From contig JBAZJZ010000001.1 of NCBI GenBank assembly GCA_041650995.1, forward strand, positions 71,891-135,890: a stretch of 64,000 nt of DNA. The letters are read 5' to 3'. The stretch's first letter is position 1; every line of letters begins with the position of its first letter. Under the pieces are notes generated by a model, which was not told the DNA's origin, made no database searches, and saw only the letters and a list, made by a program, of their open reading frames with translations. Both the position numbers and the translations under genes were made by a program. Shown here piece after piece: positions 3,100-64,000 of the stretch. Source of the stretch: Patescibacteria group bacterium (GTDB taxonomy: Bacteria; Patescibacteriota; Patescibacteriia; XYB2-FULL-38-15).

Positions 3100-4014
3100 A
3101 TGTTCTCGGCGTTATTACGTATTCTAAAATTTTCTTCTCAGGATTTCTGGAGAAATTTTTGGCTTTCCACGGCCACGATAGTAGTTTTGGTTTTGACATT
3201 GGTTTCCATAAATTTTTTAATAACTTTGAATTTTTTGACGAAAACTGCGGTAGCCGAAGTGGAAAATAAAATTGATGTCAGTATTTATTTTAAGCAGGGA
3301 GTGGCGGAAAGCGAAATCGGAAATATAAAATCATATCTTCTAAGTTTATCTACAGTGAAGGGCGTGAAATATGTTTCGCCCGAAGAAGCACTCCGAGAAT
3401 TTGAAAAAAAACATAAAAACGACGCGATAATTAAAGAATCGCTTGAAGAAGTCGGAGAAAATCCCCTGGGAGCGACGCTTGTAATCCGGGCGCATAACAC
3501 GGCGGATTATCCGGAGATTTTGAAAGTTTTTGACGCCGCGCAATACGTCAATATTATTCAAGAGAAAAATTTTGAAGATCACGAAGTCGTAATTAAAAAA
3601 ATTGATTCCATTTCGGAAAAAGCAAAGACAACAGGTGCGGGTCTCGCCGGACTTTTCGCCGTGATCGCGGTTTTGATCGGGTTTAACACGGTCCGTATGA
3701 CGATCTACACGCATCGCGAAGAAATTGGGGTGATGAAATTAGTCGGCGCGGCCAACTGGTTTGTCCGGGCGCCTTATGTCGCGAGCGGAATTTTTTACGG
3801 AATTTTTGCCGTGCTTTTCACGGTTTTAATTACCTTTCCGGCAATCGGTTTTGCCGAGCCGTATTTGGCAGGATTTTTCGGCGGTTCAGAATTCAATTTA
3901 CTCGGATATTTTTCAAATAATTTTCTGCAGATTTTTGGCTGGCAGTTTGTGGGCGTAGTTCTTCTGAATATGGTGACAAGCAGTCTGGCGGTCGGCCGGT
4001 ACTTGAAAGTTTAA
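3100..4014 (+). CDS. ftsX: cell division permease FtsX
   Basis: 304 aa; N-terminal TM, large extracytoplasmic domain, three C-terminal TM helices typical of the FtsX-like permease family; follows ftsE. Confidence 0.85.
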   Translation: MFSALLRILKFSSQDFWRNFWLSTATIVVLVLTLVSINFLITLNFLTKTAVAEVENKIDVSIYFKQGVAESEIGNIKSYLLSLSTVKGVKYVSPEEALREFEKKHKNDAIIKESLEEVGENPLGATLVIRAHNTADYPEILKVFDAAQYVNIIQEKNFEDHEVVIKKIDSISEKAKTTGAGLAGLFAVIAVLIGFNTVRMTIYTHREEIGVMKLVGAANWFVRAPYVASGIFYGIFAVLFTVLITFPAIGFAEPYLAGFFGGSEFNLLGYFSNNFLQIFGWQFVGVVLLNMVTSSLAVGRYLKV

Positions 4015-4030
4015 AAGAAAAAAGATAAAA

Positions 4031-4058
4031 TACAGACAAGCTGAAATGTCTGTTTTTT
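4031..4058 (+). terminator. rho-independent terminator after ftsX
   Basis: acagacaagctgaaatgtctgt followed by ttttttt. Confidence 0.7.
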
Positions 4059-4065
4059 TATTTCA

Positions 4066-4139
4066 TTCCGGGATCGTCTAATGGCAGGACAGCAGCCTTT
4101 GAAGCTGTTTATCTTGGTTCGAATCCAAGTCCCGGAGCC
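4066..4139 (+). tRNA. tRNA-Gln (anticodon TTG)
   Basis: TCCGGGATCGTCTAATGGCAGGACAGCAGCCTTTGAAGCTGTTTATCTTGGTTCGAATCCAAGTCCCGGAGCCA; anticodon loop CTTTGAA; encoded CCA. Confidence 0.85.
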
Positions 4140-4244
4140 AAGGGAAAGTTTGGGTATCGACCCAGACTTTCCCTTGATCTCGCGGACGGGCGATTCAACC
4201 GAGCCCCCGAACCGGCCGCTTTGTCCTTCCGGCACCGAGGAGCC

Positions 4245-4267
4245 TTCGAATCCAAGTCCCGGAGCCA
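4245..4267 (+). repeat. direct copy 1 of tRNA-Gln 3' end (T-loop to CCA, 23/23 nt), preceded by conserved junction caccgaggagcc
   Basis: ttcgaatccaagtcccggagcca is identical to 4117-4139; it lies 105 nt downstream of the tRNA. Confidence 0.85.
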
Positions 4268-4273
4268 TTAAAT

Positions 4274-4447
4274 ATGAATAAAAACATAATTAGAATACTG
4301 TGTTTTGTTTTTGCTATACTGCTTGGTGTTTTTATGTTTGTATATGGGGAATTTGATGATAGCCCAGGAGGACAATTGCTCGGACTTATAGTAGTTGTCA
4401 TTGGCATTGTGGGTATTATAAGAAGTAAGAAAAAAATTTCAAACTAA
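4274..4447 (+). CDS. 58-aa predicted membrane protein carried between the two tRNA-Gln 3'-end repeats
   Basis: ATG at 4274, stop at 4445-4447; MNKNIIRILCFVFAILLGVFMFVYGEFDDSPGGQLLGLIVVVIGIVGIIRSKKKISN has two hydrophobic helices; below the 60-aa cut-off of the ORF track. Confidence 0.45.
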   Translation: MNKNIIRILCFVFAILLGVFMFVYGEFDDSPGGQLLGLIVVVIGIVGIIRSKKKISN

Positions 4448-4456
4448 CGAGGAGCC

Positions 4457-4479
4457 TTCGAATCCAAGTCCCGGAGCCA
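4457..4479 (+). repeat. direct copy 2 of tRNA-Gln 3' end (23/23 nt), preceded by acgaggagcc
   Basis: ttcgaatccaagtcccggagcca repeated a third time. Confidence 0.85.
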
Positions 4480-4527
4480 AAGAAAAGTACAGATTCTTGT
4501 TCTACACTTTTCCTTGGCTCGTGGTAG

Positions 4528-5691
4528 TTGTTTTTTAATATGGGTAATACTTTATTTGATAATTTTAATAGAACTTACGATGGCCCAGCTAACTATACGG
4601 AATCCGAGTTTGATTACTTAAATAAATCAGCACGTGAAGGTTGTGAAAATGCACGAAAATGTCTAGATTTGTGGTTTAGAGAATATTGCATTAGATACCC
4701 GTCTGCCATAAAAGATTTTAAAGGGCGATTCTGTTCTCAGAGTGATGAGCAGCATCTTGGAGCTATTACTGAACTTTATTTGCACAATTTTTTATTAAAA
4801 AGTGGTTATAATAAAATTGAGAATCATCCAGAGACAGAATCCGCCAAGCATCCAGAATTTTTAGTATTGGACGATGGTAAGCCCTTATTTTTTGCAGAAG
4901 CCGCTATGGTTTATGGTCGTAGAGATAGGGGTCGTGTAAAAAAATTCGAAGCAACCATACTTGATTCCATAAATACTATTGAATCACAAAATTTTTTAAT
5001 CTTAGTTGAAATAGAATCAGTTGATTCTAATCGGCCGCCCTCCACGAAAAAAATAAAAGAGTGTATCGAGAAACAATTAAATTGCCTGGATTACTGCGAA
5101 GTTCTAGAAAAAGATGAAGAGCAATATCCAAAATGGGAGTATAGAGAAAATAATTGGAAATTAAACTTTATTGCTTCTCCCATTGAGGCGGAGGCTCGTC
5201 ATTATCAAGATAGATTTCCTTCTAGGAATATTGGGAGCATTAATTACCCTATTAAACAAATTGAATTAGACGAAGAGATTAAGGAAACCGTTTCGAAAAA
5301 AAGCAAAAAGTATGGCAATTTAAGATTACCTTTTATTATTGTGTTAAATGTAATTAGCGACAGTATATTCTATAGCGATGAAGTGGCTATAAGCGCATTA
5401 TTTGGTAAGCGGACGGTTCAATCTGTCACTGATGCTAATGGCACAAGGACAATTAAGCAGGGACGTACATTTGATGGAATTATTGTACATCCAGGAACAG
5501 GCATTCAAAACACCAAGATGTCGGGCTTGTTAATAATGAAAAATCTTACTAGTTTTACATTAGAAAACGTCAAACCAGTTTTGTGGCATCATCCAAAAGC
5601 TAAATATCCATTTGATGTCAATTTTTTAAAAGATATTGATCATAAAATTTATAATCCTAGCAGCGGCAAAATGGAAGATAAAATGTCATAA
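4528..5691 (+). CDS. hypothetical protein (387 aa), orphan immediately downstream of the tRNA-Gln repeat cassette
   Basis: Long ORF with no family recognised by eye; codon and composition match the host AT-rich genome. Confidence 0.4.
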   Translation: MFFNMGNTLFDNFNRTYDGPANYTESEFDYLNKSAREGCENARKCLDLWFREYCIRYPSAIKDFKGRFCSQSDEQHLGAITELYLHNFLLKSGYNKIENHPETESAKHPEFLVLDDGKPLFFAEAAMVYGRRDRGRVKKFEATILDSINTIESQNFLILVEIESVDSNRPPSTKKIKECIEKQLNCLDYCEVLEKDEEQYPKWEYRENNWKLNFIASPIEAEARHYQDRFPSRNIGSINYPIKQIELDEEIKETVSKKSKKYGNLRLPFIIVLNVISDSIFYSDEVAISALFGKRTVQSVTDANGTRTIKQGRTFDGIIVHPGTGIQNTKMSGLLIMKNLTSFTLENVKPVLWHHPKAKYPFDVNFLKDIDHKIYNPSSGKMEDKMS

Positions 5692-5697
5692 TCAAAT

Positions 5698-6564
5698 ATG
5701 TCCGACTATATAATCCTAAAAACTAAACCCTCGGCTGATTACGAGCTAATTGATTCCGGAGAGGGAAAAAAATTGGAACGCTATGGGCGGTTTGTTTTTT
5801 CGCGCCCGGATCCGCAGGCCCTTTGGCCAAAATTAAATTTGGCCGCGTGGAAAAAAGTGGACGGCGAATTTAAGCGCAGCGCGGAATCGGCAGAATGGAA
5901 AATAAAGCGTGAAGTTCCCGGTCGTTGGCAGATAAATTTGGCGGGTTTGGATTTTTGGATAAAACCCACGACTTTTAAACATTTGGGAATTTTTCCGGAA
6001 CAAGTCGGAAATTGGGAATGGATTAAAAATTTGGTCGGTAAGGCGAAAAGAAAAGTTTCAGTCTTAAATCTTTTTGGCTATACGGGCGGCGCGACGCTTG
6101 CCGCGGCCGCGGCTGGCGCGGAAGTATGCCACTTGGATGGATCAAAAGTTGCGATTACCTGGGCGCGAGATAACGCGGCTTTGTCAAAATTAGATAAAAA
6201 ACCGATTCGCTGGATTTTGGAAGACGCGGTGAAATTCGTAAAACGGGAAATTAAACGCGGCCATCGCTATGAGGGAATTATTTTGGATCCGCCGGCGTTT
6301 GGTCACGGTCCAGGCGGTGAACTTTGGAAAATTGAAGATAATTTTTTAGAATTAATGGATTTGTGTTTTAAATTACTTTCCGAAAAGCCTCTATTTTTTC
6401 TGATAAATGGTTATGCTTCAGGATATTCGGCGACTGCTTATAAAAATAATTTGTTGCCGCTCGTTAAAAAATATGGCGGAACACTCGAGGCGGGAGAATT
6501 GACAATTGAAGAAAAAAGCGGCCGGCTCTTGCCTTGCGGAATTTTTGCGAGGTGGAATTCTTAA
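5698..6564 (+). CDS. class I SAM-dependent RNA methyltransferase (RlmI/RlmK-like, COG1092-type)
   Basis: 288 aa; LNLFGYTGGATLAAAAAGA (motif I) and ILDPPAFG (DPPxF motif IV) typical of the RlmI/YccW family. Confidence 0.6.
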   Translation: MSDYIILKTKPSADYELIDSGEGKKLERYGRFVFSRPDPQALWPKLNLAAWKKVDGEFKRSAESAEWKIKREVPGRWQINLAGLDFWIKPTTFKHLGIFPEQVGNWEWIKNLVGKAKRKVSVLNLFGYTGGATLAAAAAGAEVCHLDGSKVAITWARDNAALSKLDKKPIRWILEDAVKFVKREIKRGHRYEGIILDPPAFGHGPGGELWKIEDNFLELMDLCFKLLSEKPLFFLINGYASGYSATAYKNNLLPLVKKYGGTLEAGELTIEEKSGRLLPCGIFARWNS

Positions 6565-9028: not shown

Positions 9029-9598
9029 GTGATGGAGGAGAGGAAAGTCGGCTGGGGAGACCGGGTATTAAAACCGATCGTCAAGCGAATCCCATCCTGG
9101 ATCAAGCCCAATCACTTGACCTACGTTCGCGCTGCGATGGTTGCGCCCGTGGTCGCCTGCCTTTGGTATGGCTTGAACATTCTAGCGGTGGTTTTTCTTT
9201 CTGTAGCCGTGTTGCTGGACGCGTTGGACGGCGCCATGGCACGAATCCGAAATCACCAGACTTCAAATGGCGAGTGGCTCGACGCTTACGCTGACAAGCT
9301 GCTTATCGTTGGATTGCTTCTGAGCTATGGCTGGGATCACTTCCCGCCAGTGCTCATCTGGCTCGTCTTCACGGTTGAAATTGTCCTTTGCCTTGGCCGG
9401 CCAATTAAAATCCAGCTCGGCAAATCGGGCAAGGCCAACGTTTTCGGCAAGATCAAGATGTGGCTACAGAGCGCGGCTGTCATTGGACTTGCGGCGCATG
9501 CCGACTGGACGCTTGTCGTTGCCAACGTCGCTCTTTGGGCGGCGCTTGGTTTCGCCGCGTTGAGTCTCGCTGGCCACATTTGGGACATTGCCGCATGA
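9029..9598 (+). CDS. CDP-alcohol phosphatidyltransferase family protein
   Basis: DALDGAMAR-x8-G-x3-DAYADK matches the D-G-x2-A-R...G-x3-D-x3-D motif; multi-TM; GC content clearly higher than the flanking genes. Confidence 0.65.
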   Translation: MMEERKVGWGDRVLKPIVKRIPSWIKPNHLTYVRAAMVAPVVACLWYGLNILAVVFLSVAVLLDALDGAMARIRNHQTSNGEWLDAYADKLLIVGLLLSYGWDHFPPVLIWLVFTVEIVLCLGRPIKIQLGKSGKANVFGKIKMWLQSAAVIGLAAHADWTLVVANVALWAALGFAALSLAGHIWDIAA

Positions 9599-17740: not shown

Positions 17741-17846
17741 AAAAAGAGAGGCCCGTCCGCAATTAGGATTTAGAGTCCTATTCGCAGGCAGACCTCAATG
17801 GGTGGGATAGAAGAGTCCCGAGAATCGAGACTCAGGCGGGAACGAA

Positions 17847-18101
17847 CTAGTAGAGATCGTCGGCGGGATCCTCGAGCTGCCCGCCGGTGGCGAGCAGTCG
17901 GATGTGGTCATCATCGCTGGCCCAGGCGATCGCGCGGTCGCGGTCGCGGGTCTGGCGCCAGACACCGTCGGGGTCCCTCTCCAGGTCGGCGGGGTCGTCC
18001 TCGCCGTCCTCACCACGCAGATCGGGCGGAAGCAGTTCGCGCAGTTCCTCGGACAGTTCGCCGCGGTTCAAGTCGCACTCCGCGAAACGTCGGCAAGCCA
18101 T
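17847..18101 (-). CDS. small acidic protein (about 84 aa) with high-GC, Actinobacteria-like codon usage; probable foreign gene or gene fragment
   Basis: MACRRFAECDLNRGELSEELRELLPPDLRGEDGEDDPADLERDPDG...; the three codon positions are strongly periodic (GC1 about 80%, GC2 about 50%, GC3 about 80%) in a genome that is otherwise about 38% GC; SD ggaaggagg sits 8 nt upstream. Confidence 0.4.
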   Translation of the reverse strand: MACRRFAECDLNRGELSEELRELLPPDLRGEDGEDDPADLERDPDGVWRQTRDRDRAIAWASDDDHIRLLATGGQLEDPADDLY

Positions 18102-18240
18102 TCTTCCCACTCCTCCTTCCCAACTCCGCTCGGATGAGCGAAGTGATGACCTCCTCCTGATAGCCATCCAGTTGCGTAGAAATTTTTTTCTAACCAACTG
18201 GATAATTATCAGGTTTATCCGCCGAAAAGGCGGGATTTTT

Positions 18241-18500
18241 AAAAAAAGTAGGGGCTTCAAGACTCGCGTCCATCCACCCCCTTGTCATCGCATTGCGCGA
18301 TATCTTCCCGTTACGGGAAGGGCATTCGGCTTTCCTCCCTCTGCTTGATGCGGGTGTCTGCCGCTGAATGTGGTCCAGAACACCCTGGTAGTGGCCTTGG
18401 CGGCTGCCAGCAGCGATAGCGTAATTTCGCCATCACCGTGGTCAGCGCCTTGGCCGTTTGCAATGCCTCATCGCCGTGACAGAGCTTCCCCACGTTCGGT
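18241..18500 (-). ncRNA. candidate structured ncRNA A (about 255 nt), GC-rich, identity unknown
   Basis: Minus-strand promoter TTGACA(17)TAAAGT from the 18529 palindrome; GC-rich body; ends with GGGG...CCCC hairpin plus U7 (plus-strand a7 at 18241-18247); a 74-aa ORF overlaps it, so a small protein cannot be excluded. Confidence 0.3.
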
Positions 18501-51881: not shown

Positions 51882-51910
51882 TTGACAAAATTTTATAGTT
51901 ATGTTATAAA
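51882..51910 (+). promoter_or_regulatory. consensus sigma70 promoter (TTGACA-17-TATAAA) driving the GC-rich ncRNA C; paralogous over about 30 nt to the minus-strand promoter at 18505-18536
   Basis: cTTGACAAAATTTTATAGTTATGTTATAAAAG versus (minus strand) cTTGACAAAATTATTAAAATATGTTAAAGTAAAG. Confidence 0.6.
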
Positions 51911-51916
51911 AGATAC

Positions 51917-52727
51917 GATACGGTGAAATGCCGTAAGCGGCTGGGTCCAAGAGGACGCCTTGGCTCTATCTGGCTCTTCATGCCACTGCGCAATGGATTG
52001 CGTGGTGGAATAATCTCCGCCCGTAAGGGAAAAATTAAAAAGCGAAGAAAGGGAGAAAAAGCGTCAATACCGGGCGCAAACAATCCGGTCTTGGCGCCAT
52101 GAAGATTCAGGAGATCTAAGGAGAGAGGGTTTGATTCCCTCCAGCCGCACTGGGTCTTGGTGGTAGCCGAGCAGCGGATTTCTGCATTGCTCACTGCGAT
52201 GTGGAAGGCCGACGGCAGCCATTGTGGGGTACGCGCTGCGAACCCCGCCATCAAGGCCAAAGATGGCGACTGACCTTGAATGGCAGTCGTCGATTCCTCG
52301 CTGACCTTCAAGAGTTGGCGAGCAGGGACTCTCTCTGCCAAGGGAGGGTCCGCCTGAAGCTTCCGCGAGCCTCGGCTCGCGTTGGCACAAAGTTGCGATC
52401 GCACAGCTCTGGTCATGGCTACCATGGGGATTTCCCCGAAAGCCTAAGTGCGATCGCGGCTCGCGACGTTCCATAGGGAGACGCTCGCGTTTCCTGAAGT
52501 TTCCCAGTCTCGTGCTGGGCGGAACGGCGCGGAATTTCAGCCCCCGGCGGACTTGCCCGCGCGATGGCGCTCGCATGCGTGAGCACGCGAAAAAGGCAAG
52601 TGTGGGTACCCCGGCTCTTCTGCGCCGCCCAGAAGAGCCACTTCAAAAGATCCTCTAAGCGCAGTTCGCTGCGCGGAGAGGTCTGCGATACGCGCCGTGA
52701 TGATTCATTCGTCACGGCGTTCTTTTT
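51917..52727 (+). ncRNA. candidate large structured ncRNA C (about 810 nt), GC-rich, with an embedded tRNA-like acceptor/T-arm domain; identity unknown
   Basis: GC much higher than the genome; only short overlapping ORFs in all frames with junk-like translations; 5' GCGGCTG (51937-51943) pairs perfectly with CAGCCGC (52142-52148) next to a T-arm GAGGG-TTTGATT-CCCTC; bounded by a promoter and a strong terminator. Confidence 0.5.
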
Positions 52728-52728
52728 T
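52693..52728 (+). terminator. intrinsic terminator of ncRNA C
   Basis: cgccgtgatgattcattcgtcacggcg followed by ttctttttt. Confidence 0.7.
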
Positions 52729-52738
52729 ATCTCTAATC

Positions 52739-52766
52739 TTGACAAAAAATAGAAAAGGACTATGAT
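52739..52766 (+). promoter_or_regulatory. sigma70 promoter (TTGACA-16-TATGAT) upstream of the SPFH gene
   Basis: TTGACA at 52739-52744, TATGAT at 52761-52766. Confidence 0.5.
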
Positions 52767-54021: not shown

Positions 54022-54048
54022 CTAGCAGTCCTTGACGTCGATTGCTAA
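54022..54048 (+). promoter_or_regulatory. CIRCE operator (HrcA binding site)
   Basis: CTAGCAGTC-cttgacgtc-GATTGCTAA matches the consensus TTAGCACTC-N9-GAGTGCTAA at 15/18 positions, inverted-repeat arms CTAGCAgTC/GAtTGCTAA; sits between the -10 box and hrcA. Confidence 0.8.
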
Positions 54049-59779: not shown

Positions 59780-60856
59780 ATGGCAAAAGATTATTACAAA
59801 ATTTTAGGCGTTTCGAAAAGCGCGTCCGCGGAAGAAATTAAAAAAGCCTTCCGCGAGTTGGCGCACAAATATCATCCGGATAAAAACGGCGGCAACGCTG
59901 ATCAGTTTAAAGAAATAAACGAAGCCTACCAAGTTCTTGGCAATCCGGAGAAACGCCAGCAATACGATCAATTCGGAACCACCTTTGAAAACGCGCAAGG
60001 CCAGGGTGGATTTTCTGGTTTTGACGGCTTCCGGGATTTTTCTGGATTTGCCAATGGTTTTGATATGGGAGATTTGGGAGAGATGTTTGGTTTTGGCGAT
60101 ATTTTTGGCGGCGGGCGGAAGAGGGGGCGAGCAAGCCGCGGCCGGGATATTGAAGTTGAAATGCGCGTTGATTTTCGCGAAGCGATTTTTGGCGCGGAGA
60201 AAATTTTAGAAATGTATAAGCCATCTGTTTGCAAGAATTGCGGCGGGAGCGGCGCTGATCCAAAAAGTAAAATTACCACTTGTCCAAATTGTGGCGGCGC
60301 GGGCCGGGTGCAAGTTGTCCAGCGGACATTTTTAGGAAACATTCAAACCGTCACAACATGTGATAAATGTGGAGGAGTCGGAAAAATTCCGGAAAAAGAA
60401 TGTAGTATCTGCCGTGGCAAGGGCATAGTTCGTGACAGCCAGAAATTAAAAATAAAAATCCCGGCCGGGATTGATGATGGCGAAACAATAAAAATTTCCG
60501 GCGAAGGAGAGGCAGCCGAACACGGCGGAAAATCCGGAGATCTTTTCGTGACGATGCGAGTCGTGCCGGACAAAGAATTCAAAAGAAAGAAAGATGATAT
60601 TTTAAGTAGAGTGGAGATAAATTTTTCGCAGGCGGCGCTTGGCGATAAAATTGAAATAGAAACTTTAGACGGAAAAATTAAATTAACTATTCCAGCCGGA
60701 ACGCAGTCGGGGCAGATTTTTCGTTTGAAAGGGAAAGGCGTGCCGCATTTGAATAGTTACGGTCGCGGAGACCAATTGGTAGAAATTGTGGTGGTCACAC
60801 CGACTAATTTAAACAAGCGACAGAAGGAATTATTGGAAGAATTCGCTGCTAGGTAA
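59780..60856 (+). CDS. dnaJ: molecular chaperone DnaJ
   Basis: J-domain with HPD (KYHPDKN), G/F-rich linker, four CxxCxGxG zinc-finger repeats. Confidence 0.95.
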   Translation: MAKDYYKILGVSKSASAEEIKKAFRELAHKYHPDKNGGNADQFKEINEAYQVLGNPEKRQQYDQFGTTFENAQGQGGFSGFDGFRDFSGFANGFDMGDLGEMFGFGDIFGGGRKRGRASRGRDIEVEMRVDFREAIFGAEKILEMYKPSVCKNCGGSGADPKSKITTCPNCGGAGRVQVVQRTFLGNIQTVTTCDKCGGVGKIPEKECSICRGKGIVRDSQKLKIKIPAGIDDGETIKISGEGEAAEHGGKSGDLFVTMRVVPDKEFKRKKDDILSRVEINFSQAALGDKIEIETLDGKIKLTIPAGTQSGQIFRLKGKGVPHLNSYGRGDQLVEIVVVTPTNLNKRQKELLEEFAAR

Positions 60857-61053
60857 ATTTTATCATTTTAATTGTAAAAATCGTTGCTAAATATCGGCGG
60901 CGGTTTTTTTATTTAAAACTCTTGACAAAACAGAGAAAAAACATTTAAGTATAGTGAGGTTTGCCCAATAGCGGGTAGGCTCGCCTTGCCGTCTAGGCAG
61001 GCTTCGTTCCTTTGAAATTCGCTTCTTGGCCATTGGGCCAAAGGAGAGAAACA

Positions 61054-63072
61054 ATGAAAAAGGTGGTTGTCCTTTTCGTTCTGGTATTCGGGCTCATCCG
61101 AACGGCTTCCGCTTCGGCGGATCAGCCTGCCGATGAGACAGGGGAATCCCAGACCTACCTTGTCCAATGGGGAGATCGGCTGCCTCGGGTGGCAGCGCAA
61201 TTCGGTTTGACCCAGGAAGAGCTTTTGGCAGCCAATCCGCGCTCGGCCTATGGGATGAGCTGCGGTAATCCGCACACAGTCACGTTGCGTAATGGCGAAC
61301 GCCAAGCTCTCTGCGGTCGGCCAAGGCCATACCTCATTGCCGGCAAGACGCTTGTCATTCCCGTGCCCCGCGCCACGCTCCAGACTGAGAGTGTTCGGCT
61401 GAACGCCGAAGTTGTGGCGCTCCGCGCGGAGATGGCTCAATTGCGGAAGGCGCGCGAGACGGAGAAGTCCGAGCTTGCGGCCCTCGCGCAGGAACGCGAC
61501 AATCTCCAGAGCGAGAACGAATCGCTCGTTGCCGCGAAGGCTGAGCTTCAAGGCAAGTACAGCGAATCCCAGGCGGACTTCCGGGCGGTGTTTTCCCGAC
61601 AGCCGAAGCAGATTGAAGTTCAGAAGACGAATTTCAACCACATCGTTTTGGCAGTTGCCGTCACCGCTTTCGTGTTTGTGCTCATCATTCTCGCCATCTT
61701 GTCCCGCAAGGGCAAGAACGAGAAGAAGTTTGATCGCCTTGTCCGGCTTGTCCAGCCGAGCGTTTTGGAACAGGCCGAGAAGAACAAGCAGCGCGGCGCA
61801 GAGCTTGACCAACTAGCGAAGGAACTCGATCAACAGAAGCGAGAGGCAGACGACCTGCAAGCCAAACTGCAAGAGCAGAAGAGCGAGCAGGAGCGTTTGG
61901 GCAATGATCTTGCGACGCGCGAGGCAACCCTGAAGCGGGAGCAAGAAGAACTTGCCACGGCGAAGCGAGCCGTGGAAGAAAGGGAAGCTTTCTGCACCCG
62001 CCGTGATGACGAAATTCATGAAGCCGAGCGCGGACTCCTGGAACGCAGCGAAGCTTTCCGCGGGCATGTCCGGGCCGAAGAAGAACGCCTGAGAACAGAG
62101 AGCGTTGCTGTCGCGCGCGGCAAGGAAGAATTCCTTGCTGCACAGCGCGATCTGGAAGAGAAGAGAGCGCAGGTTGAAGCTGGATTGCGGACTCTTGAAG
62201 AAGATAGTCCCGCGATCCAGAGAGACAGGGAAGAAGCTGATCGGCGCGTCAGAGAAGCCGAGACTCGCGAGGAGAGTGCGAAGCGCGCCGCGGAAGACGC
62301 GGCGCAACGCGTCAGAGAAGCCGAGACTCGCGAAGCTGCGGCCACGAGACAGACAGAAGAAGCAGAAAGTCGAAAGGGCGCCGCAGACGAAGCAGAGAGG
62401 ATTCTCGCTCGCCGCGAAGAGGAAGTTGGGGGCAGGGAAGAAGAACTGCACCGGCTTCAAGATCAACTGAGACAGGAACGAACCGACTTCGAAGGGCAGC
62501 TTGGAGCGGCAGAACATACGCTTGAAGCTGCTGGCGGACTTGAGAAGGCAAAACGCATCATCAGCCGCGCCAAGCGCAAGGAAGAAATTGTTGCGGCTCT
62601 TGATAAGCGGGAGGTAGCTATTGCCGACCGCGAAGAAGTGTGCGCCCACCGCGAACACGAACTCGCCCTTTGGGCAGCGCAACTCGGAGCTCTGGAGGAC
62701 GACACTTCAGACGGGGAGGAAACCGTTCAGCGGCTTACCTTGGGAGCGGATGACACTTTTCAGGACGCCGCTGGGAGCATCACTTGCGCGGCTTGCGGCG
62801 GGAAATTTCCCGATCGCGGCGCGTTCGACGCGCACAAGGCGAGTTGCCCCAAAGCCGCGCCACACACACCGACTATTGTCGGGGCTCCGGCAGGAGGGCG
62901 GGCATCGGTTGTAGCGCCTCCTCCCAAACCGGTCCCGGGTGAGACTGTTCATGACTCTTCGTCGTCTGAACCCGTAGTCTACTGCCAACACTGCAAGGAG
63001 GGGTTTTCTCCCGAGGTCTACGCAGCAGAACACGCAACACACGACGAGGGATTGGCAGGAAAGAAGGGCTAA
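61054..63072 (+). CDS. GC-rich secreted/membrane-anchored LysM - TM - long coiled-coil - tandem C2H2-like zinc-finger protein (compositional outlier, probable horizontal acquisition)
   Basis: 672 aa at about 60% GC versus about 38% for the genome; signal peptide; LysM-like YLVQWGDRLPRVAAQFGLTQEELLAANP...IAGKTLVIP; TM LAVAVTAFVFVLIILAIL; E/R/A-rich coiled coil with repeated REAETRE units; C-terminal CAACGGKF..H....C and CQHCKEGF...H..H motifs. Confidence 0.6.
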   Translation: MKKVVVLFVLVFGLIRTASASADQPADETGESQTYLVQWGDRLPRVAAQFGLTQEELLAANPRSAYGMSCGNPHTVTLRNGERQALCGRPRPYLIAGKTLVIPVPRATLQTESVRLNAEVVALRAEMAQLRKARETEKSELAALAQERDNLQSENESLVAAKAELQGKYSESQADFRAVFSRQPKQIEVQKTNFNHIVLAVAVTAFVFVLIILAILSRKGKNEKKFDRLVRLVQPSVLEQAEKNKQRGAELDQLAKELDQQKREADDLQAKLQEQKSEQERLGNDLATREATLKREQEELATAKRAVEEREAFCTRRDDEIHEAERGLLERSEAFRGHVRAEEERLRTESVAVARGKEEFLAAQRDLEEKRAQVEAGLRTLEEDSPAIQRDREEADRRVREAETREESAKRAAEDAAQRVREAETREAAATRQTEEAESRKGAADEAERILARREEEVGGREEELHRLQDQLRQERTDFEGQLGAAEHTLEAAGGLEKAKRIISRAKRKEEIVAALDKREVAIADREEVCAHREHELALWAAQLGALEDDTSDGEETVQRLTLGADDTFQDAAGSITCAACGGKFPDRGAFDAHKASCPKAAPHTPTIVGAPAGGRASVVAPPPKPVPGETVHDSSSSEPVVYCQHCKEGFSPEVYAAEHATHDEGLAGKKG

Positions 63073-63094
63073 AATAATGGAGGTTACGCCGGAC

Positions 63095-63130
63095 AAGCGA
63101 GCATATCGCGAGTCCGGCGGTTTTTTTATT
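63095..63130 (+). terminator. intrinsic terminator after the GC-rich gene
   Basis: cgccggacaagcgagcatatcgcgagtccggcgg followed by ttttttt. Confidence 0.65.
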
Positions 63131-63176
63131 TGTTTTTTTATGCTATACTTAATAAAGTTAATAAAGTTTATAAATT

Positions 63177-64000
63177 ATGCGCCAAAGACTTTTTTTCATT
63201 TCATTGGTCCTTATTATTTTTAGCATAGCTAGTGGTCTTGGTTTACGTTATGCGCAAGCAATTGCATGGACCGAGCCGTCGGCCCTGCCGCCGGGTGATA
63301 ATGTTCCAGCTCCAATTAATGTTGGCGCGGGGGCGCAAATTAAAACAGGCGATTTAACTATCGGCGGGAATTTTGTTGTTGGAAGCGGAGCAGTTATCGG
63401 CGCCCCAGCTGGCGGAAACATGGGCGCGGGAACTTTGAACGCTGTGCAGCTTTGTATTCAAGGAAATTGCCGTAACAATTGGCCGGAAGCAGTGAGTGCT
63501 TTTGTTGATGAAGGGAATGTTGGTTTCGGTCCAACCGCGGTTTTGGGAACAAATGATAATGTGCCTTTATCTTTGGAAACGAATGGAGTTGGACGAATAC
63601 AGATTGGTGCCGCTGGTAATGTGGGAATTGGGACAACAAATACAGCGTTTAATTTAATGGTTGGCGGAGTGGCTCCGAGAATTTATCTTTTGCCAGCGCC
63701 GGGCAGTAATCCAGAATTTGATTTTGGCAGTCCGGCCATAGATACTCACTGGGCAATTTATCGCGATGTGGCGACAGACCAACTTCGTTTTTGGAGAACT
63801 GATAATAGATTAATTTTAACAAGTGACGGTAATGTCGGCATTGGAACAGATCCTGCTTACAAACTGGACGTAGCCGGACAAATAAACGCAAACACAAATT
63901 TAACGCCGGCGATCAGGGGAGTAAGTACAGCAGGTAATGGCAAGGGAATTTATGGTGAAGCGGCTGCTGCTGCAGGAATTAATTACGGTGTTCATGGAAA
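63177..64000 (+). CDS. secreted repeat protein with tail-fibre-like (N)VGIGTxxP/T...L.V.G repeats; 3' end runs off the window
   Basis: ATG at 63177 after an RBS-less AT-rich leader; signal MRQRLFFISLVLIIFSIASGL; repeated GNVGIGTTNTAFNLMVGG / GNVGIGTDPAYKLDVAG units; no stop before the window end. Confidence 0.5.
   Translation, partial: MRQRLFFISLVLIIFSIASGLGLRYAQAIAWTEPSALPPGDNVPAPINVGAGAQIKTGDLTIGGNFVVGSGAVIGAPAGGNMGAGTLNAVQLCIQGNCRNNWPEAVSAFVDEGNVGFGPTAVLGTNDNVPLSLETNGVGRIQIGAAGNVGIGTTNTAFNLMVGGVAPRIYLLPAPGSNPEFDFGSPAIDTHWAIYRDVATDQLRFWRTDNRLILTSDGNVGIGTDPAYKLDVAGQINANTNLTPAIRGVSTAGNGKGIYGEAAAAAGINYGVHG

Follow-up and report, generated by a model that had tools for sequence, protein, structure and literature searches.

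A GC-rich gene downstream of dnaJ in a Patescibacteria clade: evidence for a single ancestral shift in composition and for a putative wall-anchored scaffold

The locus described here raises two questions, namely how one gene came to be so much richer in guanine plus cytosine (GC) than the genes around it and what the product of that gene might do. It lies in a stretch of 64,000 nucleotides from a Patescibacteria group bacterium (contig JBAZJZ010000001.1, positions 71,891 to 135,890), hereafter called the window. The gene, which we call X, occupies 61054..63072 after dnaJ on the plus strand, where all the features of X given below also lie; Y is the next gene downstream, and L-numbers denote related loci. 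An earlier reading of the window (the original prediction) had proposed a horizontally acquired protein that spans the envelope. We find that X belongs to the chromosome of a small clade of Patescibacteria and is restricted to this lineage. The members of the clade are labelled Falkowbacteria or 'Patescibacteria group', and the data point to a single shift in its composition in the ancestor of that clade. The best explanation for the whole, in which our confidence is about evenly balanced, is that X encodes a peptidoglycan-anchored bitopic scaffold and is a GC-rich unit that was shifted once and then inherited in place.

The predicted jump in GC content over about 2 kb after dnaJ is borne out. 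In 400-nt windows GC is 0.58-0.62 across 61000-63000, compared with 0.40-0.46 in the flank before it and 0.45-0.49 in the flank after it, and all other 1-kb bins of the 64 kb are at or below 0.525. Among 125 sliding windows of 2 kb, 61001-63000 ranks first by GC (0.591 against a mean of 0.418, standard deviation 0.037, z=4.7) and first again by tetranucleotide distance (z=6.4). The gene itself has a GC of 0.593, with 0.72, 0.45 and 0.61 at the first, second and third codon positions (GC1, GC2 and GC3), where dnaK has 0.54, 0.36 and 0.46. The observed GC3 of 0.609 compares with 0.431 predicted from the amino-acid composition of X and the window's own codon preferences. This indicates that the shift reaches synonymous sites and is more than a matter of amino-acid composition. 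Lys is encoded by AAG in 84% of cases (18% by the preference of the window), Leu by TTA in 0% (26%) and Asp by GAC in 58% (31%). The raised GC spans the leader of X through to its terminator, and ends at the promoter on one side and at the terminator on the other. Runs of five or more A are found at 0.5-2 per kb in X and at 8-12 per kb in dnaJ, but a rough calculation gives about this effect from a GC of 0.59 alone, and we discarded the idea of a special avoidance of such runs.

A word-indexed search gave 12 homologues of X with 34-95% identity, assigned to Falkowbacteria or Patescibacteria and carrying as their most specific name 'LysM peptidoglycan-binding domain-containing protein'. When 1.84 billion representatives were searched exhaustively by profile, only about 20-25 clusters (at 50% identity) had the complete architecture, and generic multi-LysM proteins ranked beneath them. 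Where the flanks were recovered, the gene order is hrcA-grpE-hsp20-...-dnaK-dnaJ-X-Y-cysS-corA. The run dnaJ-X-Y-cysS-corA is present in L001, L003, L014 and L015, and part of it in L005, L009, L019, L021 and L023. In about nine relatives, sampled and assembled independently, X is directly 3' of dnaJ; in L007, L017/L018 and L024/L025 one or two small genes intervene. Y follows X in most of the relatives with downstream sequence, and in L027 it is missing and cysS comes directly after X. The product of Y (63177-64000; complete in L014 at 3928-6327) is a large surface protein, rich in glycine, with a signal anchor and repeats of the type GNVGIGT..KLDV. The gene has a high GC2 and a native GC3, follows X even in the outgroup locus L024, and has no significant match in Pfam or NCBIfam.

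Two explanations, recent acquisition as a foreign island and a chimeric assembly with joins near 60.9 and 63.1 kb, had both been raised for this gene, and we consider them highly improbable. They would fit the standing of X as the strongest compositional outlier of the window, and also the exact 17-nt direct repeat (CGGCGGTTTTTTTATTT) that brackets it at 60898-60914 and 63115-63131. The two copies of the repeat are, however, the tails of two intrinsic terminators. Copy 1 is held by the terminator of dnaJ (60876..60914), which was found by a terminator scan, and copy 2 by that of X (63087..63131; CGCCGGAC..GTCCGGCG and a T run). The exact repeat is present only in this strain and in L014, its 95%-identical relative, and absent from nine other loci of the same arrangement, so a target-site duplication is ruled out; the repeat may instead be a product of conversion between the dnaJ and X terminators. 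The junctions are identical in L014, the same junctions and order occur in at least ten independent assemblies, and the exact X protein is on a 567-kb public contig in three sources (JGI, Logan and ENA). X is downstream of dnaJ wherever flanks were recovered, its borders are free of integrase, tRNA and mobile-element genes, and in the outgroup a homologue of native composition sits at the same locus. These observations speak against both an island and a chimera. No relatives of X were found in IMG/VR or among GenBank phages, and a phage or viral origin was rejected on this ground.

The composition of X is a property of the clade. In all 14 GC-rich orthologues for which DNA was available the GC of X is 0.58-0.61, and its GC3 is 0.575-0.67 in every clade locus, against 0.35-0.50 in the neighbouring genes. 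All the GC-rich orthologues use AAG for 64-88% of Lys codons, compared with 12-36% in their dnaJ genes, and the ratio R/(R+K) is 0.59-0.82 in the GC-rich X proteins as compared with 0.30-0.41. The original prediction had named relatives with native GC as the finding that would speak against a foreign origin, and such relatives exist. In the outgroup loci L024/L025, arranged dnaK-dnaJ-hyp182-X-Y, X has a GC of 0.448 and a GC3 of 0.450 (dnaJ, 0.461 and 0.431), and in a further homologue at this locus, L026, the GC of X is 0.383. The homologues of native composition can be aligned colinearly with X over 347 amino acids (aa), at 29% identity and E=4e-22. The alignment spans the signal peptide, the LysM domain with both of its cysteines, the stalk, the transmembrane (TM) segment and the coiled coil, which is Lys/Glu-rich in these homologues, and there is a C2H2 finger at the end. 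In the host tree, built from DnaK and DnaJ, L024 splits first, L007 next and the core clade last. Given this order and the native composition of the outgroup, one compositional shift on one branch is enough. The sequences thus point to a single shift in the ancestor of the clade, after the split from the outgroup.

How might such a shift have come about? Within the clade, DnaJ is 79-97% identical to that of the window and X is 38-95% identical, which shows that X evolves much faster than its neighbours. Identity also varies along the gene. L015 and L019 share 91-92% nucleotide identity in dnaJ; their X genes agree completely (100%) in the first 150 nt, after which identity falls to 0.79, 0.72 and then 0.3-0.5. 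L019 and L003 are 81-91% identical across nt 450-750 of X, where the TM segment lies, and identity drops to about 0.5 beyond. This mosaic shows that alleles have been exchanged between lineages. The simplest and most likely account, as far as comparison of the sequences can tell, would be that the allele of a GC-richer relative replaced the resident X allele in the clade ancestor, because the shift hits all three codon positions, amino-acid usage and the leader. After the replacement, X would have been inherited in place, diverging fast and being shuffled by recombination between lineages.

Several points weigh against this account. We found no donor lineage with a matching genome GC. Neutral-decay arithmetic, based on four-fold-site divergences, is borderline, as it gives a starting GC3 of about 0.83 with the dnaJ clock and above 0.9 with the gene Y clock, and the preference for AAG is still very high in the GC-rich X genes. 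Both observations fit active maintenance as well as slow decay. Polarised counts in X gave 137 strong-to-weak (S>W) against 68 weak-to-strong (W>S) changes at all positions and 72 against 36 at synonymous positions, with 140 against 217 in the controls. These had looked like evidence of GC loss and were discarded, since in simulations parsimony with outgroups at these distances gave ratios of 1.36-2.9 under stationarity and about 1.5 under decay. A serious rival to allele replacement is that the GC-rich state is held in place, either by selection on the mRNA or DNA of the unit or by GC-biased gene conversion at a recombination hot spot; we judge this to be unlikely on balance. It would explain why all allele classes keep a GC of 0.58-0.61 although X protein identity drops to 28-38%, why AAG remains at 64-88%, and why the raised GC extends over the whole unit, leader and terminator included, without passing the promoter or the terminator. 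The locus recombines, and on the faster clock neutral decay requires an implausibly high starting GC3. We know of no mechanism, however, that holds one gene 17-20 GC points above its genome, and the reported effects of biased conversion in bacteria amount to a few points. Additionally, the outgroup homologue does the same job with a native composition and a Lys/Glu-rich coiled coil, and the R/(R+K) shift suits an origin of the whole sequence better than selection on synonymous sites. A third possible constraint on composition, a real gene overlapping X on the minus strand, is the least probable of the alternatives considered. Two antisense open reading frames (ORFs) of 299 and 289 aa (60913-61812 and 61813-62682; together 60913..62682) run across X, antisense open stretches occur in all orthologues, and the sense frame is nearly without TTA, CTA and TCA, the codons that give antisense stops. 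In a codon-aligned comparison of 13 orthologues, however, the longest open stretch is anywhere between 167 and 549 codons long, and its interruptions fall in differing places; GC-rich codon usage alone yields avoidance of those codons, and AAA is equally avoided; and no promoter or Shine-Dalgarno evidence was found for either frame. We therefore rejected an antisense gene on the orthologue comparison, in agreement with the earlier view of the two frames as shadow artefacts of GC-rich coding sequence.

The second question concerns the product. The predicted protein begins with a signal peptide (aa 1-22, 61054..61119; MKKVVVLFVLVFGLIRTASASA, ending in ASA) that is Sec-like by inspection, is kept in all homologues and appears as a low-confidence N-terminal helix in an AlphaFold model built from 11 orthologues. 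The model has a predicted local distance difference test score (pLDDT) of 81-96 for aa 31-170. A LysM domain follows (aa 33-103, 61150..61362), identified from Pfam, AlphaFold, Foldseek and invariant columns. Its beta-alpha-alpha-beta elements in the model are E33-36, H43-49, H54-60 and E99-102 (pLDDT 81-91). Some 30 residues forming four strands (aa 66-94) are inserted between helix 2 and the last strand; they contain invariant C70 and C87, which are a probable disulfide pair. The top Foldseek matches in the PDB are the LysM domains of YkuD (4a1i), Thermus NlpC/P60 (4uz2) and MltD (8rhf), with probabilities of 0.98-1.0. The core superposes on the LysM domains of such peptidoglycan enzymes and the GDxL...A..N motif region of the family matches Pfam LysM, below threshold in the window protein itself, but X differs from them in its two-cysteine four-strand insert and in having no catalytic domain.

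C-terminal to the LysM domain, the model shows a single extracytoplasmic stalk helix of 77 residues (aa 106-182, 61369..61599), with pLDDT 90-96 over most of its length. It contains one glycine and no proline and would measure about 11 nm if straight. A TM helix is placed at aa 194-216 (61633..61701) by its composition, by a model helix at 194-232 and by its conserved position in the family. The basic stretch SRKGKNEKK comes directly after it, as expected for the inside of the membrane. As the LysM domain and the cysteine pair are N-terminal of the TM helix, the basic residues follow it and the Cys/His zinc sites are C-terminal, a coherent topology can be proposed in which X is a type I bitopic envelope protein with LysM outside and the zinc sites inside. 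This topological reasoning supports the earlier suggestion of a wall-binding module outside and zinc-binding modules inside. The invariant columns of X are nearly all in the ectodomain and in the last finger.

The region from aa 217 to 548 (61702..62697) would form a cytoplasmic coiled coil up to about 49 nm long. It consists to 72% of A, E, R, L, Q and K and has a net charge of -16, and the autocorrelation of its hydrophobic residues peaks only at lags 7 and 14, which is what identifies it as a coiled coil by heptad periodicity as well as composition. It gives weak matches to SMC and CRWN_N coiled coils. It is the most variable part of X, with identity between orthologues going down to 0.15-0.4. 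The repeated REAETRE units that had been noticed in this region correspond to an internal duplication (62229..62333; family D1 of a repeat search), in which two 42-nt copies, 62229-62270 and 62292-62333, are spaced 63 nt apart and 86% identical. Both encode RVREAETRE, and the coiled coil contains a 21-residue duplication.

The last 113 residues are modelled as two small beta-beta-alpha units (pLDDT 84-90) with a disordered proline-rich linker between them. The first unit, finger B (aa 578-598, 62785..62847), is a C2HC site with the pattern C578-x2-C581-x12-H594-x3-C598, or in full C-x2-C-x3-F-x5-F-x2-H-x3-C. It has a pLDDT of 88-90 and a Pfam zf-C2H2_4 match at E=0.021, is mildly basic (+2), and is present in 7 of 11 aligned orthologues, being degenerate or absent in the rest. 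The second, finger C (aa 643-663, 62980..63042; pLDDT 84-85), reads C644-x2-C647-x12-H660-x2-H663 within Y-C-x2-C-x3-F-x5-A-x2-H-x2-H. Its C644, C647, H660 and H663 are invariant in the clade. It is acidic, with a net charge of -3, and its recognition helix, SPEVYAAEHATH, has no basic residue. Across orthologues there are one to three fingers, of which the last is invariant and the others come and go. They are single fingers and form no tandem array, and the linkers between them are of about 40 residues and proline-rich or acidic. The predicted series of LysM domain, TM helix, coiled coil and two fingers is therefore confirmed as an arrangement, with the correction that the second finger ends in H-x2-H and not x3/4.

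To which family do the fingers belong? A PDB profile search with the C-terminal region returned almost exclusively classical C2H2 proteins, the best being Aart (E=2.7e-7), and the search of representatives with the C-terminal profile returned a eukaryotic poly-finger protein, P0092. The leading Foldseek matches of the fingers were all C2H2 proteins, none of them statistically significant (best E=0.028). In Pfam, the window protein scores 16 bits with zf-C2H2_4, where the cutoff is 27, and the orthologue in L019 scores 21.6 bits with zf-met, which passes the cutoff of 21.2, and 27.4 with ZNF451_C, where the cutoff is 30. The spacing agrees with that of classical C2H2 fingers (C-x2-4-C-x12-H-x3-5-H), the H-x2-H of finger C being one residue below the canonical range. 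The likeness to zf-C2H2, zf-C2H2_4 and zf-met thus lies in the pattern C-x2-C-x3-F-x5-hydrophobic-x2-H-x2-4-H/C and in a modelled beta-beta-alpha unit of about 25 residues. In contrast to classical proteins, the fingers of X are isolated, with long disordered linkers, and do not form tandem arrays with TGEKP linkers; the invariant finger combines H-x2-H with an acidic helix; the Pfam scores are mostly below threshold; and the fingers are fused to a bacterial membrane protein. Outside the X family, the search for relatives of the zinc-finger region found only one fragment, which itself belongs to the X family. Bacterial Cys2His2 zinc sites are also known from Ros, a DNA-binding silencer in which C79-x2-C82-x9-H92-x4-H97 is embedded in a 58-residue beta-beta-beta-alpha-alpha globular domain (PMC9779718). 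X resembles Ros/MucR in having such a site, but differs in its x12 spacing and its minimal unit of about 25 residues, and ROS_MUCR gave no match in the Pfam search of X, so we do not place X in this family.

From this architecture, a scaffold function may be proposed for X. The LysM domain would fix the protein to peptidoglycan, the long coiled coil would act as an oligomeric spacer, and the terminal fingers would be docking modules, more probably for a protein partner than for DNA, since the invariant finger is acidic and solitary. X would then position cytoplasmic components relative to the wall in the manner of FimV/HubP. These proteins, whose architecture is the nearest to X among those known, have an extracytoplasmic LysM-type domain, one TM segment, an extensive acidic cytoplasmic domain and a small conserved C-terminal module (PMC12918733). 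The resemblance of X to FimV, HubP and TspA of Pseudomonas, Vibrio and Neisseria lies in module order and topology and in the long, acidic, fast-evolving cytoplasmic region. X has the LysM-like domain and the single TM segment, and its cytoplasmic domain is acidic (net -16), yet it is a heptad coil where theirs consists of acidic repeats. X further differs in having no detected sequence relationship to them beyond LysM, in ending in C2H2-type zinc fingers where they end in the FimV TPR domain, in having a 77-residue stalk helix between LysM and the membrane, and in its host, a Patescibacteria lineage where theirs is a proteobacterium. A cytoplasmic interaction module is also linked through one TM segment to an extracytoplasmic peptidoglycan-binding domain in FtsN, DamX and DedD (SPOR), RodZ and MapZ. 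In those proteins the N-terminus is inside and the C-terminal domain binds the wall; the folds they use for this purpose are different, and they have neither a long coiled coil nor zinc fingers. X is thus of the opposite orientation, and no sequence similarity to them was found.

The scaffold reading also meets difficulties. The LysM domain of X is below the Pfam cutoffs (PF01476, 15.7 bits against 20.9; LysM3_LYK4_5, 23.9 against 29.3), although two other proteins of the family pass the gathering score, P0049 with 34.5 bits and P0021 with 24.2. The FimV C-terminal domain is absent, with no FimV model in NCBIfam or Pfam matching at E<=1, and for this reason we claim an analogy and not family membership. 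The position of X next to dnaJ could, moreover, reflect some link to proteostasis. A different reading of the same modules is that X is a membrane-tethered nucleic-acid binder, serving either as an anchor between nucleoid and wall or as a transcription factor that regulated proteolysis sets free to signal the condition of the cell wall or of a host. The finger spacing is classical, and in sequence and fold the top matches are to DNA-binding C2H2 proteins; there are also scores for zf-met and JAZ-type models, which describe double-stranded RNA binders; finger B has a mildly basic character; and the long coiled coil with its disordered linkers could reach far into a very small cell. We nevertheless find this reading rather doubtful, and binding of nucleic acid inside the cell, as originally suggested, is not favoured. 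The one invariant finger is acidic and has a recognition helix without a basic residue, the fingers are single and separated by 40-residue proline-rich or acidic linkers, their number varies from one to three with finger B lost in several orthologues, and the cytoplasmic part as a whole is strongly acidic. An effector-like role, which had also been mentioned, is unlikely in view of the membrane anchor and the cytoplasmic part of about 450 aa. A bolder combination, to which we give only a slim chance, is that X, by its eukaryote-type fingers and 50-nm coil, keeps nucleic acid (nucleoid or particular RNAs) at a set distance from peptidoglycan as a bacterial analogue of lamina/LINC-type systems, and that the unit is kept GC-rich by selection because its mRNA or DNA has a role. 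If true, this would account for the anomalous composition that all allele classes share.

X is best read as a transcription unit of its own, with a conserved promoter, a stabilising hairpin at the 5' end (P1), a second hairpin that occludes the Shine-Dalgarno sequence (P2) and its own terminator. The longest ORF runs from a TTG at 61012 to 63072, but the likely start is the ATG at 61054, because an AAGGAG ends 7 nt upstream of it and all orthologues start with MKK or MRK there. The coding sequence of 61054..63072 then encodes 672 aa. X has an exact match in the public records, MFA5128465.1, a 'hypothetical protein' of Patescibacteria group bacterium, in which the NCBI start lies 7 codons upstream of the ATG and the product has 679 aa. 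Upstream, dnaJ stops at 60856 and is closed by a separate terminator. Between that terminator and X there is a promoter block (60922..60953), recognised by conservation, in which TTGACA (60922-60927) and TTAAGTATA, a putative -10 element, are separated by 17 nt. The block cTTGACAAAA..TTTAAGTATA is ungapped in 13 of the 13 loci that cover the region, and a recognisable version of it is present in the AT-rich outgroup L024. The strong terminator that closes X has a homologue 3' of X in every orthologous locus. The X promoter lacks a CIRCE element. The only CIRCE-like site in the window is an inverted repeat just upstream of hrcA (54022-54048; CTAGCAGTC-N9-GATTGCTAA, with 3 mismatches to the consensus), and control of X by HrcA/CIRCE was rejected on this basis. 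As X has a promoter and a terminator to itself and lacks a CIRCE element, its proximity to dnaJ is probably positional rather than regulatory.

The leader of X, about 97 nt long, folds better than shuffled sequences (z=-2.8 in the window and -2.3 to -4.2 in nine relatives). The original prediction of a structured leader is upheld, but the long-range pairing of GCCCAAT with ATTGGGC on which it was based appears in no minimum-free-energy or centroid fold. By inspection this pairing is complete only in the lineage of the window and in L009/L023, and is reduced to 6 bp in L014. Two local hairpins account for the conservation of the leader in its place. P1 (60956..60982), a stem of 10-11 bp at the presumed 5' end of the transcript, is present in the minimum-free-energy fold of every leader folded and in the RNAalifold consensus, with compensatory changes at stem positions 3, 4, 9, 11 and 12. 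P2 (61022..61046) pairs CUUCUUGGCC with GGCCAAAGGAG, the Shine-Dalgarno sequence AAGGAG (61041-61046) serving as the 3' arm; the pairing may also be written CUUCUUGGCC/GGCCAAGGGAG, the 3' arm then being the front of the Shine-Dalgarno sequence. P2 is conserved in 14 leaders and has compensatory changes at stem position 6 in L007 and at position 10 in L005. An extra GC-rich hairpin (60984..61003; GCCTTGCC..GGCAGGC) forms a separate stem inside a 22-nt insertion that, in the alignment, is limited to the window strain and L014. No Rfam family matched in the leader or in the gene.

The neighbourhood of hrcA-grpE-dnaK-dnaJ might suggest that the leader is an RNA thermometer that ties the translation of X to heat shock. 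A CUUCUU tract does pair with the Shine-Dalgarno sequence, partly by G-U pairs, X comes after dnaJ, and the CIRCE-like element upstream of hrcA implies that a heat-shock regulon exists. We think this very unlikely all the same. ROSE and fourU thermometers have stems that melt in the physiological range, whereas P2 has a dG37 of -10.6 to -15 kcal/mol with a GGCC/GGCC core, and the predicted unpaired probability of the Shine-Dalgarno core, 0.00-0.40 in 12 of 13 leaders, is almost flat from 10 to 55 C. The occlusion is thus present in the folds but accessibility hardly changes with temperature, and the thermometer was rejected in silico. Consistent with this, the leader has no match to ROSE, fourU or any other Rfam family, the Shine-Dalgarno sequence of L007 lies outside the stem, and the X promoter is without a CIRCE element. 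From the predicted folds, P2 is best read as a constitutive damping of X translation and not as a thermometer.

Some other features of the window and of the related loci may be recorded here. A second GC-rich coding outlier is a CDP-alcohol phosphatidyltransferase gene at 9029-9598 (Pfam E=7e-23), with a GC of 0.56 and a GC3 of 0.667 against an amino-acid expectation of 0.467. Between yidC and a Band7 gene, about 850 nt at 51900-52750 are GC-rich (0.56-0.59). The ORFs there are unconvincing on both strands, and Rfam gave no match, either at the gathering threshold or at E<=1. L001, L003 and L015 are likewise GC-rich between these genes, but the length of the region varies among them and the conserved patches are only of about 48 nt and about 150 nt. 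A further island at 17800-18350 (GC 0.59) has several frames open on both strands and no credible Rfam match. The segment 55758-57825, between hsp20 and dnaK, is by contrast low in GC (0.27-0.32) and contains a GmrSD_N/DUF262 restriction-type protein (Pfam E=4e-31) and an ORF of 117 aa; in relatives this position holds other small genes, so it looks like a strain-specific defence insertion. L001 has two adjacent tRNA-like genes at 1330-1503, one with a UCA anticodon (tRNA-SeC according to ARAGORN) and one with an abnormal anticodon loop, which have no counterpart in the window. Finally, the record of L001/L006, OZ246416.1 (886 kb, complete), was deposited as 'uncultured Gammaproteobacteria bacterium'; its gene content and its relatives are Patescibacteria-like, and it is probably mislabelled.

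These results call for caution in inferring horizontal transfer from composition, as the top outlier of the window by both GC and tetranucleotide distance is a syntenic gene of the whole clade. With a single ancestral shift and a native version at the same locus in the outgroup, the question of whether X is a replaced allele or a maintained bias becomes directly testable. X also defines an uncharacterised, lineage-restricted protein family, and we found no described example of a peptidoglycan anchor joined through the membrane to classical C2H2-type fingers. To our knowledge, very few cytoskeletal or landmark proteins have been recognised in Patescibacteria. For this reason X, as a FimV/HubP-like scaffold, would be a concrete candidate for a protein that organises the interior of these tiny cells relative to the wall.

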